From the NCBI RefSeq assembly GCF_003334255.1, contig NZ_QOWU01000004.1: a DNA stretch of 64,000 nucleotides, one strand, 5' to 3'. Positions 60,558 to 63,776 of the stretch are shown in pieces. Source of the stretch: Escherichia coli (GTDB lineage Bacteria > Pseudomonadota > Gammaproteobacteria > Enterobacterales > Enterobacteriaceae). The translations under genes and the position numbers were made by a program. Every line of letters begins with the position of its first letter. Positions within the stretch are counted from its first letter, which is position 1. The notes under the pieces are model-generated. The model was not told the origin of the DNA, ran no database searches, and saw nothing but the letters and a program-made list of their open reading frames with translations.

Positions 60558-61667
60558 TCACTTGGCTGCCGTGGATGAACCGTCGGCGTGCCACTGGAAG
60601 ACACCAAAATCAAATCCCTTAAGATCGCCTTTTTCATCCCAGTTCAGCGGCCCAATCACGGTGTTTGCACCGTTAGCTTTTAAATCTTTCACCAGCGCCA
60701 GCGGCTCATCGCTGCCGGTACGCTCAAGGGCTGTTGCCAGAGATTGCACCGCCGCGTAAGTGATCCAGACATAAGGCCCGGACGGATCTTTCTTGTCTGC
60801 TTTCAGCGCATCAACGATGCCCTGGTTTGCCGGATCCTGGTCATAGCGTTTTGGCATGGTGACCAACATGCCTTCGGCAGCATCGCCAGCAATATTCGAC
60901 AGCGACGCATTACCCACACCTTCCGGCCCCATAAACTGGGTTTTCAGGCCAACGGAACGGGCCTGGCGCAGCATCTGCCCCATTTCCGGGTAGTAACCGC
61001 CGTAGTAAACGAAGTCGATGTTTTCTTTTTTCAGGCGGGCGATCAGCGCGGAGAAATCTTTCTCGCCAGCGGTAATGCCGTCGAAGAAAACAACATTGGC
61101 GTTAGCAGCTTTCAGCCCGTCCTGCACCGAACGTGCCAGCCCTTCGCCATATTGTTGTTTGTCGTGAATGATGGCGATGCGCTGGGGCTTCACCGTCTCA
61201 AGAATGTATTTTGCCGCCGTTGGCCCCTGGGAAGAGTCCAGCCCGGCAGTACGCATAATGTGTTGATAACCGCGTTGGGTCAGCTCCGGGTTGGTCGCTC
61301 CCGGCGAGATCATCAGAATACCTTCGTCTTCATAGATATCTGACGCAGGCTGGGTAGAAGAAGAACACAGATGACCAATAACGTATTTAATGCCGTCATT
61401 AACGATTTTGTTGGCGACCGCAACGGCTTGTTTCGGGTCGCAGGCGTCGTCATATTCCACGCCAACCAGCTTGTCGCCCTTAATTCCCCCTTTGGCATTA
61501 ATGTCTTTAATCGCCTGACGCGCGCCGTTAAATTCCATATCGCCCCACTGGGCAATCGGGCCGGACATCGCGCCGACAACGGCGACTTTAATATCGTCAG
61601 CCATAGCGGTGTGTGAAATTGCCAGTGCAATCATCCCTGCGATGATAGTTTTCGCATTCCGTTTCAT
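60558..61667 (-). CDS. livK: Leucine-specific periplasmic binding protein LivK (369 aa)
   Basis: ORF 60558..61721 trimmed to [43 protein letters not shown]... Confidence 0.95.
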
Positions 61668-62090
61668 AGTCAAAAATCCCCATTCGTGATGTTGTGTTGC
61701 TTTGTTTTTATGTGTTAACAAATCAGACTGTTCTTTTTTTATACTGCACTGTTTTTGCCTGTCTGATTAAGGGTTTAGCGCAGTATTTTGTGATAATAGT
61801 GATTAAAATCCCTATTTTTCAGTCGATTAAGAACAGATAATATTCTGAATTTATTGATAGATAAACAGAAAAAAGTGCCTTTGTCAGCATAAAATAACGG
61901 CACAAAGGGCGGAATAATTCACTACCATTCAGGGGATTATGCTGGGTATTTTTCATTCTCTAATGTTTTAACTTTGTAATTATTGCTGTTAAAAAATTAA
62001 TCACCTGCCAAAAGAAATAAAAAAGAGAAAGCCTCCGATTAAATTATTTCGCTACACTGGTTCCACTTTTGTGATTTACACGGGTTACCC

Positions 62091-62474
62091 ATGAAGCTGA
62101 CCATCATTCGATTAGAAAACTTTAGCGACCAGGACCGGATTGACCTGCAAAAGATCTGGCCGGAGTATTCCCCTTCCTCTTTACAGGTTGACGATAACCA
62201 CCGTATCTACGCCGCGCGTTTTAACGAGCGCCTGCTCGCTGCCGTACGGGTAACCTTAAGCGGCACCGAGGGAGCACTGGATTCCCTGCGTGTGCGGGAA
62301 GTCACCCGACGTCGCGGTGTGGGGCAATATCTGCTGGAAGAGGTTTTGCGTAACAATCCTGGCGTTTCATGCTGGTGGATGGCGGATGCAGGCTTGGAAG
62401 ATCGCGGTGTGATGACGGCGTTTATGCAGGCGCTGGGGTTTACGGCGCAACAGGGCGGCTGGGAGAAGCGTTAA
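62091..62474 (+). CDS. panM: PanD maturation factor PanM/PanZ (127 aa, GNAT fold)
   Basis: ORF MKLTIIRLENFSDQDRIDLQKIWPEYSPSSLQVDDNHRIYAARFNERLL... Confidence 0.92.
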   Translation: MKLTIIRLENFSDQDRIDLQKIWPEYSPSSLQVDDNHRIYAARFNERLLAAVRVTLSGTEGALDSLRVREVTRRRGVGQYLLEEVLRNNPGVSCWWMADAGLEDRGVMTAFMQALGFTAQQGGWEKR

Positions 62475-62509
62475 TCGTCAAGTTGATTTCAAAAGTGATG
62501 ACCAACGAG

Positions 62510-62620
62510 AAATTGCCTGATGCGCTACGCTTATCAGGCCTACAATGTGTGTTGCAATTTACTGATTTCTTTGGATCTTGTAGGCCGGATAAGGCGTTTA
62601 CGCCGCATCCGGCATGAAGC
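62510..62620. repeat. REP/BIME cluster between panM and livJ
   Basis: tgcctgatgcgctacgcttatcaggcctacaa ... gtaggccggataaggcgtttacgccgcatccggcatg. Confidence 0.8.
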
Positions 62621-62672
62621 AACGTACTCGATATTAGCAATTTGGCGGCAACCCAAAGTTGCCGATTAATGA

Positions 62673-63776
62673 TTACTTCGCATCGGTCGCCGTGCCGTTG
62701 GCGTGCCAGTCAAATACGCCGAACTCAAAGCCTTTCAGATCGCCTTTCTCATCCCACGTCAGCGGTCCCATTACGGTATCCACGGAGTTCGCTTTCAGGT
62801 ATTTGGCGATCTCAGCCGGATCGTCAGACTGATTCAGGCCCGCCTGCAAAGATTGCAGCGCGGCGTAGGTGGTCCAAACGAATGCGCCGCTTGGGTCCTG
62901 TTTTTTCGCTTTGATCGCGTCAACAATGGGTTTGTTTGCCGGAACCTGATCGTAGTTCTTCGGCTTGGTCACCAGCAGCCCTTCCGCTGATTCGCCCGCA
63001 ATGTTAGACAGCGAAACGTTAGCCACACCTTCCGGCCCCATAAACTGAGTTTTCAGCCCTGCCGCGCGTGCCTGACGCAGGATTTGCCCCATTTCCGGGT
63101 GGTAACCGCCGTAGTAAACGAAGTCGATATTCTCTTTCTTCAGACGCGCCACCAGCGTAGAGAAATCTTTTTCCCCGGCGGTGATACCATCAAAGAACAC
63201 CACGTTAGCATTGCCTTTCTTCAGGCCGTCCTGCACCGCTCGTGCCAGACCTTCGCCGTATTGCTGTTTGTCGTGAACGATAGCAATACGCTGCGGTTTC
63301 ACTTTCTCAAGAATATATTTCGCCGCCGTCGGCCCCTGGTCGGAGTCCAGGCCGGTGGTGCGCAGGATCAGCTGATAGCCACGGGCGGTCAGCTCCGGCG
63401 CGGTTGCCGCTGGGGTGATCATTAAAATGCCTTCGTCTTCGTAGATATCAGACGCAGGCTGCGTTGATGAAGAACAGAGGTGACCAATCACATATTTAAT
63501 GCCGTCGTTAACGACTTTGTTCGCCACCGCAACCGCCTGTTTCGGGTCACAGGCATCGTCATATTTTACGATTTGCAGTTTGTTGCCTTTAATGCCGCCT
63601 TTAGCGTTGATATCCGCAACCGCCTGCTCTGCGCCGGTAAACTCCTGGTCACCGTACTGCGCAACCGGACCGGACATTGCGCCCACGACCGCGACTTTAA
63701 TATCTTCTGCCAGAGCCATATTGCTGAATGCCAGCGCGATACATCCTGCCAGTAACGCTTTACCCTTTATATTCAT
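62673..63776 (-). CDS. livJ: Leu/Ile/Val periplasmic binding protein LivJ (367 aa)
   Basis: ORF 62673..63833 trimmed to [43 protein letters not shown]...; paralogue of livK. Confidence 0.95.

Follow-up and report, generated by a model that had tools for sequence, protein, structure and literature searches.

Duplicated enterobacterial genes such as tufA and tufB are subject to ectopic deletion, duplication or conversion. Among the transport genes of Escherichia coli, the single LivHMGF importer is served by two periplasmic binding proteins with different ligand ranges, LivJ for leucine, isoleucine and valine and LivK for leucine and phenylalanine (PMC5807212). The neighboring gene panM (panZ) encodes the PanD maturation factor (PMC3473359). 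In K-12, the genes of this LIV-I and LS high-affinity branched-chain amino-acid transport locus are arranged in the order livJ (b3460), panZ (b3459) and livK (b3458), the last followed by livHMGF. The original sequence papers on the locus are reportedly those of Landick and Oxender in 1985 and Adams et al. in 1990. The paralogy of livJ and livK, their common LivHMGF transporter, panZ/panM and the REP elements are established E. coli biology.

The window analyzed here, a stretch of 64,000 nucleotides from an E. coli contig (NZ_QOWU01000004.1), carries this locus with the same gene order, strands and gene lengths as K-12 (livK 1110 bp, livJ 1104 bp and panZ 384 bp) (Table 1). The nucleotide identities to K-12 are 98.0% for livK and 98.9% for livJ, with allelic differences only, PanM, encoded at the syntenic position, shares 98% identity with K-12 PanZ, and the gap between panM and livJ is 198 bp as against 187 bp in K-12. 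Several E. coli chromosomes annotated with livK, panM, livJ and livH match a 3.7-kb region covering the genes at 100% identity. livK is the first gene of livKHMGF and livJ is a separate gene upstream of panM, which is divergent from livK and convergent with livJ; K-12 and 78 related loci likewise have the livHMGF permease and ATPase genes linked in this way. The preliminary description of this DNA had placed livK and livJ on either side of panM, and the open reading frames and the annotation confirm both the coordinates and the gene identities.

Table 1 Features of the livK–panM–livJ region and positions in the window.
Feature	Position	Strand	Basis
livM	58310-59587		Directly downstream of livK (with livH)
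livH	59584-60510		Directly downstream of livK (with livM)
livK, leucine-specific periplasmic binding protein (LS-BP)	60558-61667	-	ORF, RefSeq annotation, match to PDB 1USG
25-bp identical tract CAGTTTATGGGGCCGGAAGGTGTGG	livK 60914-60938 / livJ 63023-63047	-	Pairwise alignment
16-bp identical block ACCCGGAAATGGGGCA	livK 60976-60991 / livJ 63085-63100	-	Pairwise alignment; EFF60 crossover interval
27-bp identical tract ATCGACTTCGTTTACTACGGCGGTTAC, encoding IDFVYYGGY	livK 60993-61019 / livJ 63102-63128	-	Pairwise alignment
livK-panM intergenic region, AT-rich, divergent, putative livK promoter/leader side	61668-62090	.	Sequence
panM/panZ, PanD maturation factor	62091-62474	+	ORF, annotation
REP element 1 (GCCTGATGCG...TTATCAGGCCTAC)	62515-62545	+	Consensus pattern match at 62519-62543; hairpin in fold
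REP element 2, oriented opposite to REP 1	62580-62613	-	Consensus pattern match at 62580-62609; inverted arms
livJ, Leu/Ile/Val periplasmic binding protein (LIV-BP)	62673-63776	-	ORF, annotation, match to PDB 1Z15

LivK (369 amino acids counted from the annotated ATG) and LivJ (367 amino acids) are type I substrate-binding proteins of the HAAT ABC importer LivHMGF, with full-length matches to the characterized LS-BP and LIV-BP. Specifically, residues 24–369 of LivK match the leucine-specific binding protein (PDB 1USG; E = 4.6e-232) and residues 24–367 of LivJ match the Leu/Ile/Val-binding protein (PDB 1Z15; E = 1.4e-229). The mature crystallized chains start at residue 24 of both open reading frames, and residues 1–23 are hydrophobic and end in AMA in LivK and in ALA in LivJ; a cleavable N-terminal signal peptide of 23 amino acids is therefore implied for both proteins. 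Alignment of the flanks indicated that, going upstream, the homology between the two genes is lost within a few bases of the start codons, and apart from the Shine-Dalgarno area nothing upstream of livJ corresponds to the AT-rich interval between livK and panM. Consensus scans for promoters and terminators scored no better than on shuffled sequence, and regulatory claims are thus not based on them.

The BIME between panM and livJ is ordinary and has no demonstrated role in the paralogy. REP/BIME repeats of E. coli consist of canonical GCCKGATGCG...TTATCMGGCCTAC palindromes arranged as an inverted pair at convergent gene ends and present in many genomic copies, and all of these properties are common to the pair in the window, a single BIME of two REP elements and a 34-bp linker, flanked by the 3' ends of panM and livJ. 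The consensus pattern matched at 8 places in the window, compared with 0 expected from 100 shuffles, and the folding z-score of the REP region was -3.5. Per E. coli genome, the median number of places matched by the 3.7-kb query was 37. A match to the REP-derived Rfam family naRNA4 at 62583–62620 was below threshold (40.4 bits against a gathering score of 59.5). The "REP cluster" named in the preliminary description is therefore real as to its REP elements but small, a two-REP unit and not a large cluster. Other strains have an ataRT toxin-antitoxin cassette in the gap between panM and livJ.

LivK and LivJ share 77.4% of their residues (285/368) in a global alignment, and the genes share 74.0% of their nucleotides (817/1104) with one 2-codon indel, which bears out the homology proposed earlier at both levels; the three peptide blocks quoted in its favor are found in both translations. 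Identical tracts longer than about 20 bp, which had been anticipated, were also found by pairwise alignment, the longest being 27 and 25 bp. The 27-bp tract adjoins a 16-bp block with one mismatch between them, giving a nearly identical stretch of about 44 bp (livK 60976–61019 / livJ 63085–63128). The 27-bp tract hinges on one synonymous allele of the window strain: it is only 26 bp long in K-12 and most Escherichia because livJ there has TAT in place of TAC, and of 53 genomes, only 1 has identical livK and livJ sequences over its full length. Conversely, a synonymous ACC-to-ACT allele of livK lengthens the 25-bp tract to 34 bp in some strains. Among 13 diverse E. coli strains, the number of identical nucleotides was 803–819 and the longest tract was 22–34 bp. 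When livJ was used as a query, a second megablast place was obtained in about 2,600 genomes.

The tracts are only marginally longer than protein constraint and codon usage predict. A longest tract of at least 27 bp had a probability of 0.07 when columns were shuffled and of 0.17 when synonymous codon pairs were permuted on a fixed protein alignment; under the latter, constraint-aware null, two tracts of at least 25 bp had a probability of 0.04. With synonymous codons drawn independently, about 800 identical nucleotides were expected, compared with the 817 observed. The bacterial MEPS limit was given as at most ~30 bp (PMC8918686). The identity between livK and livJ is not extended, and its tracts of 22–34 bp lie at this limit.

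The age of the duplication was examined in 78 Enterobacterales loci, of which 52 have two copies and 24, from other families, have one. All 52 two-copy loci belong to Enterobacteriaceae and have the order livJ-panM-livK-livH. The 24 single-copy loci (Yersinia, Serratia, Pectobacterium, Dickeya, Brenneria, Erwinia, Pantoea, Hafnia and others) encode a binding protein that shares about 76% identity with LivK and with LivJ alike, and panM lies upstream of its gene; the order rpoH-panM(-)-binding-protein gene-livH was found in 22 of them, and the other two sequences are too short to reach rpoH. In a bootstrapped neighbor-joining tree of 57 representative sequences out of 132, the K clade (100/100), the J clade (98/100) and the single-copy clade (100/100) were separate; the trees group by gene and not by species, a pattern other than that of concerted evolution. 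The divergence between E. coli livK and livJ (dN = 0.155, dS = 1.49) is similar to that of each copy from the outgroups. The presence of a single copy next to panM outside Enterobacteriaceae points to one duplication at the base of this family and indicates that panM is not a later insertion; since panM was already in place, livJ arose between rpoH and panM. Of the earlier claims, that of ancient paralogues is thus upheld by the well-supported clades and a dS of about 1.5, while the wording of a tandem duplication "now separated by panM" has to be abandoned, as the single-copy relatives show panM to have been the divergent neighbor before the duplication.

Before the duplication the layout was rpoH-panM(-)-BP-livHMGF, with BP as the sole binding-protein gene. 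By the simplest route, the panM-BP unit may have been duplicated in tandem and the upstream copy of panM then lost, which would leave rpoH-livJ-panM(-)-livK-livHMGF. Both copies evolved independently afterwards, with synonymous sites approaching saturation, and the 27-, 25- and 16-bp blocks are mostly a residue of purifying selection on the conserved protein core and of common codon usage. We consider it very probable that livK and livJ are independently evolving duplicates derived from the one duplication at the base of Enterobacteriaceae, that their similarity is mostly due to constraint and that exchange between them is very rare.

No convincing conversion tract was found in E. coli, either in a site-by-site inspection of 13 strains or in cross-genus comparisons. 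The nucleotide identity between livK and livJ amounts to 0.742 for copies of the same genome and 0.7315 for copies of different genomes, and this excess of about one point could reflect common genomic codon usage or low-level conversion. Transversion polymorphisms in the 13 strains matched the paralogue at chance level (6 matches and 6 misses). A CAG-to-AAA codon change, present in two strains, is a weak candidate for conversion. A cluster of strain-unique changes in E04 livK (columns 551–566 of the alignment) was rejected as a micro-conversion; 3 of its 5 sites match livJ and the intervening livJ-specific bases were not transferred, and a divergent imported livK allele is more likely. Three genomes carry a livJ that is 90–95% identical to the window copy, and a search with the divergent livJ allele of "E. 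coli" SCPM-O-B-8794 gave no close genome, all being at 90–95%. In the wider family, Mangrovibacter has a conversion-like tract at columns 465–600, where its two copies are 92% identical over 135 nt while no orthologue exceeds 84%; the identical run there reaches 81 bp, and the local dS is 0.25 compared with about 1.0–1.1 elsewhere. Entomohabitans also has one or more conversion-like tracts, and several other genera have identical runs of 41–53 bp. No literature linking livJ or livK with gene conversion was found.

An alternative to constraint is that the central third of the genes (approximately columns 510–780, which include all three identical blocks) was homogenized by gene conversion, in a single event shortly after the duplication or in recurrent, infrequent ones, and that the tracts are its remnants. 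The dS is 0.77 in columns 630–780 but about 1.4 in both segments upstream of them (downstream it is saturated), the clear conversion-like tract of Mangrovibacter lies in the same general region, several other genera have the 41–53-bp runs, and the low probability of two tracts of at least 25 bp would also agree with such an event. The ratio of K–J to outgroup divergence falls to 0.74–0.9 in columns 510–780, compared with about 1.0–1.16 at the gene ends, a dip that leaves room for an old partial homogenization. However, columns 600–690 are the least diverged in every comparison, including those between genomes and with the single-copy outgroup, in which their third codon positions differ by 0.37–0.43 as against 0.5–0.58 elsewhere, and this indicates a constraint common to all copies. 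In addition, the K–J identity of E. coli in columns 621–767 (0.836) is lower than the K–K and J–J identities to other genera (0.858–0.878), and hence no homogenization has occurred since Escherichia split off. Together with the clean separation of K and J in the whole-gene trees and the dependence of the longest tract on a single allele, these data make a homogenized center improbable as the source of the tracts.

Exchange between the paralogues in E. coli is represented by a natural livJ × livK crossover deletion in strain EFF60 (GCF_023373585.1), the only such case in 5,426 E. coli genomes. This strain has a livJ'-'livK fusion pseudogene and lacks panM, which is found in the other 5,425 genomes. 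The informative sites switch once from livJ type to livK type, without mosaicism, inside the 16-bp block beside the 27-bp tract. A lone genome with a fusion annotated as "frameshifted" could have arisen artefactually during assembly or culture, and E. coli would then offer no population evidence of livJ × livK exchange. Against this, the sequence is a circular chromosome of complete assembly level, the frameshift stems from a discrete 23-bp deletion as opposed to homopolymer noise, the clean switch falls exactly in an identical block, and an assembler would not be expected to collapse paralogues of 74% identity located 2.1 kb apart. Furthermore, panM and a 700-bp chimeric probe (livK 5' part and livJ 3' part) each lacked a match in exactly one genome. 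An artefact is accordingly an unlikely explanation of EFF60, and we retain the crossover deletion. The same probe detected no reciprocal K'-'J hybrid with a junction in columns 342–1042 in the 5,426 genomes; its best place everywhere was an ordinary livJ at 89.6%, as read by identity ranking and not by coverage, which was uninformative because megablast ran on through the diverged half.

The identical blocks are about as short as RecA-type recombination can still use, so that ectopic exchange is possible but very rare. It amounts to a single crossover deletion among 5,426 complete E. coli genomes, together with short conversion-like tracts seen now and then in other genera. The suggestion that extended identity could support recombination or conversion between the copies is therefore kept in part: the identity is not extended and conversion was not found in E. 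coli, but the EFF60 crossover and the tracts of other genera are in line with it. It is quite doubtful that the nearly identical stretch of about 44 bp is a recurrent natural site of crossover and conversion, one that occasionally deletes panM and the functional binding proteins and, in some genera, moves specificity-determining segments between LivJ and LivK. If it were, pantothenate auxotrophy and loss of high-affinity branched-chain amino-acid uptake would be predicted, and paralogue exchange would be a real but rare contributor to variation of the locus.

The small additions to known biology are the dating of the duplication to the base of Enterobacteriaceae, the presence of panM ahead of that duplication and the lack of concerted evolution of livJ and livK in E. 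coli. The locus is of use mainly for calibrating ectopic recombination between paralogues that have diverged, a case in which EFF60 and the tracts of other genera illustrate what blocks of 16–34 bp in genes of 74% identity can and cannot do. As in ectopic recombination of other diverged tandem paralogues, livJ and livK lie on the same strand about 2 kb apart, a crossover in a short block has deleted the intervening DNA (EFF60), and conversion-like tracts likewise occur in some genera. Compared with gene pairs that evolve in concert, in contrast, livJ and livK are far more diverged (74% at the nucleotide level), their identical blocks do not exceed 34 bp, their trees are free of concerted evolution and the events are extremely rare, at 1 in 5,426 genomes.

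The protein-guided codon alignment of livK and livJ contains a single 2-codon indel; 285/368 residues (77.4%) and 817/1104 nucleotides (74.0%) are identical. LivK and LivJ both contain the three peptide blocks that the preliminary description quotes. Since identical tracts of 27 and 25 bp are present, the longest shared runs exceed the ~20 bp that it had named as the limit for its proposal. Apart from these and a 16-bp tract, the identical tracts are at most 14 bp. The 27-bp tract is allele-specific: livJ of the window has TAC where K-12 and most Escherichia have TAT, which leaves 26 bp, and among 53 two-copy genomes the paralogues agree over all 27 bp in the window alone. 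A passage in PMC8918686, citing Shen & Huang 1986, places the bacterial minimal efficient processing segment at no more than ~30 bp, and the E. coli tract lengths straddle this value.

Coordinates of the features (window positions, unless a retrieved locus, L, is named)
Feature	Location	Strand	Basis
livK	60558-61667	minus	ORF; annotation of identical RefSeq chromosomes
livJ	62673-63776	minus	ORF; annotation of identical RefSeq chromosomes
panM (K-12 name panZ)	62091-62474	plus	ORF
27-bp identical tract	livK 60993-61019 / livJ 63102-63128		
25-bp identical tract	livK 60914-60938 / livJ 63023-63047		
16-bp identical tract	livK 60976-60991 / livJ 63085-63100		
REP palindrome 1	62515-62545	plus	REP consensus pattern
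REP palindrome 2, inverted relative to 1	62580-62613	minus	REP consensus pattern
Further REP elements	12774-12852, 28470-28494, 55044-55068, 56675-56765		REP consensus pattern
livJ'-'livK fusion pseudogene, panM deleted	L002 6001-7087 (E. coli EFF60, NZ_CP086678.1)		
livJ-panM gaps with ataR-ataT	L082 1996-2796; L086 4854-5654; L090 4853-5653; L091 1997-2797		
Mangrovibacter tracts	L047 and L064, livJ ~3011-4117, livK 5001-6107		Codon-alignment columns 465-600
Entomohabitans tract	L044		Columns 165-330

When the alignment columns were shuffled, the longest run averaged 20.2 bp and reached 27 bp or more with P = 0.07. Under a constraint-aware null, in which the protein alignment was held fixed and synonymous codon pairs were permuted per amino acid, the corresponding values were 22.6 and 0.17, with P = 0.04 for two runs of at least 25 bp. 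The identical tracts exceed chance only marginally. Independent synonymous codons with each gene's own usage would yield ~800 identical nucleotides against the 817 observed, which puts the synonymous sites near saturation (Nei-Gojobori dN = 0.155, dS = 1.49). Constraint largely accounts for the short identical blocks.

A product of recombination between the two genes was found in E. coli EFF60, which has one 1,087-bp gene, annotated as "livK, frameshifted", between rpoH and livH; this interval contains neither panM nor a second binding-protein copy. The sites are livJ-type from 5' of the start codon to TAT-CAC (columns 778-779 of alignment A1) with nine scattered exceptions, and livK-type from CAG-ATG (column 796) through the end. 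The livJ alleles of a panel of 13 diverse strains often have the livK base, so that the exceptions are most simply explained as allelic variation. The switch between columns 779 and 796 places the crossover within the 16-bp block ACCCGGAAATGGGGCA, immediately past the 26/27-bp tract. The frameshift is due to a separate 23-bp deletion. panM is absent from exactly 1 of 5,426 E. coli genomes, which we infer from the locus to be EFF60. Pantothenate auxotrophy results from panZ/panM loss (PMC3473359) and is therefore predicted for EFF60, which would also have neither LivJ nor LivK in functional form.

Separate megablast searches with livK and livJ detected the two genes in each of the 5,426 genomes, and one visible livJ x livK deletion among them; a chimeric probe did not find the reciprocal livK'-'livJ product in this set. 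The livJ query had a second short place in ~2,600 genomes. The place in O104:H4 spans 34 bp of livK, where one synonymous ACC to ACT change lengthens the 25-bp tract. A few genomes gave up to 4 places for livJ, 4 extra places for panM and 9 for the chimeric probe; these probably represent segmental duplications, or matches interrupted by the start of the record, and none is a reciprocal hybrid. In strain KC-Dl-1 (NZ_CP063046.1, L088 1-3600), mannose-family PTS genes upstream of livJ replace rpoH-ftsXEY, which points to a rearrangement breakpoint between rpoH and livJ.

Within the genomes of the 13 strains, 803 to 819 positions were identical between the paralogues, with longest tracts of 22 to 34 bp. 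Transversion polymorphisms matched the paralogue six times and missed it six times, which is the chance level. A dense variant cluster in strain E04 was rejected as a conversion since it does not follow livJ. At livK columns 843-845, E04 (L085) and 15.TR.026_OXA (L087) share a two-nucleotide change, CAG to AAA (Gln to Lys), the only one in the panel that recreates the livJ codon; it is a weak candidate for a micro-conversion of ≤12 bp, or else a parallel substitution. The proposal that identity between the copies could support recombination or gene conversion is thus weakly borne out, by the single crossover deletion in EFF60; the blocks are short, and the site comparison of the 13 strains revealed no convincing conversion tract.

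Nucleotide identity over the whole gene was 0.742 within and 0.7315 between genomes, and therefore there is no general concerted evolution. An old partial homogenisation of the central third is unlikely. It would fit the lower dS between the E. coli paralogues at columns 630-780 (0.77, compared with ~1.4 in the two upstream segments; the downstream segment is saturated) and the drop in the ratio of paralogue to outgroup divergence to 0.74-0.9 in columns 510-780. However, the most similar stretch of the E. coli pair, columns 621-767, has an identity of 0.836, lower than that to other-genus orthologues (0.858 for livK and 0.878 for livJ), and divergence is lowest at columns 600-690 in all comparisons; this holds for the single-copy outgroup too, and for third codon positions. 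The latter pattern indicates a constraint common to all copies.

Conversion-like, lineage-specific tracts between livJ and livK occur in a few other genera. Mangrovibacter plantisponsor (L047) has an 81-bp identical run; its two genes are 92% identical over 135 nt, where either is ≤84% identical to any orthologue, and the local dS is 0.25 versus 1.0-1.1 over the rest of the gene. Both copies also have lineage-specific amino-acid changes in common. Entomohabitans has a 47-bp run and 94% identity in 90-nt windows, and runs of 41-53 bp were found in several other genera.

With one genome scanned per species, 78 loci were obtained. All 52 two-copy loci are from Enterobacteriaceae and have the order livJ(+)-panM(-)-livK(+)-livH, and 24 one-copy loci came from Yersiniaceae, Pectobacteriaceae, Erwiniaceae and Hafniaceae. 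The single-copy protein is ~76% identical to LivK and LivJ alike. In a neighbour-joining protein tree, the LivK, LivJ and single-copy clades were supported at 100/100, 98/100 and 100/100, which together with this distribution places a single duplication at the base of Enterobacteriaceae. The ancient paralogy claimed in the preliminary description is thus confirmed, but its tandem copies later separated by panM have the order of events reversed. At one-copy loci panM is already divergently upstream of the binding-protein gene, with rpoH beyond it in 22 of 24 (the other two end before reaching rpoH). Hence livJ arose between rpoH and panM, and panM is no later insertion between tandem copies. 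The simplest route would be that panM and the binding-protein gene were duplicated as a unit and one of the panM copies was then lost.

The REP cluster is indeed located between panM and livJ, where their 3' ends converge, although it amounts to two inverted palindromes. The consensus pattern had 8 matches in the 64-kb window and 0 in 100 shuffles; in Rfam, only the REP-derived naRNA4 gave a signal, which was below threshold. Two additional inverted pairs (BIMEs) lie at ~12.8 kb and ~56.7 kb. The livJ-panM spacer ranges from 44 to 2,996 bp across genera. In E. coli the gap (62475-62672 in the window, with the REP pair) is a presence/absence site: 4 of 10 additionally sampled strains carry an ataR-ataT type II toxin-antitoxin cassette there, the ends of ataT and panM overlapping by 4 bp. 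Immediately past the livJ stop codon, a GC-rich hairpin (GGCAAC-CCAAA-GTTGCC, 62646-62662) may be the end of the livJ transcript; no T-run follows it on the livJ strand, and a terminator scan did not flag it.

Matches to crystal structures were 1USG, leucine-specific binding protein, for LivK (E = 4.6e-232) and 1Z15, Leu/Ile/Val-binding protein, for LivJ (E = 1.4e-229), with residue 24 as the start of both mature chains. The two binding proteins, differing in ligand range, feed one LivHMGF importer (PMC5807212), and livH and then livM follow downstream of livK. Several RefSeq E. coli chromosomes with the same annotation are 100% identical over the 3.7-kb stretch, which was matched in 5,426/5,426 complete genomes. 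The region is a textbook locus, with the layout of K-12 MG1655, ugpB-livFGMHK-panZ-livJ-rpoH.
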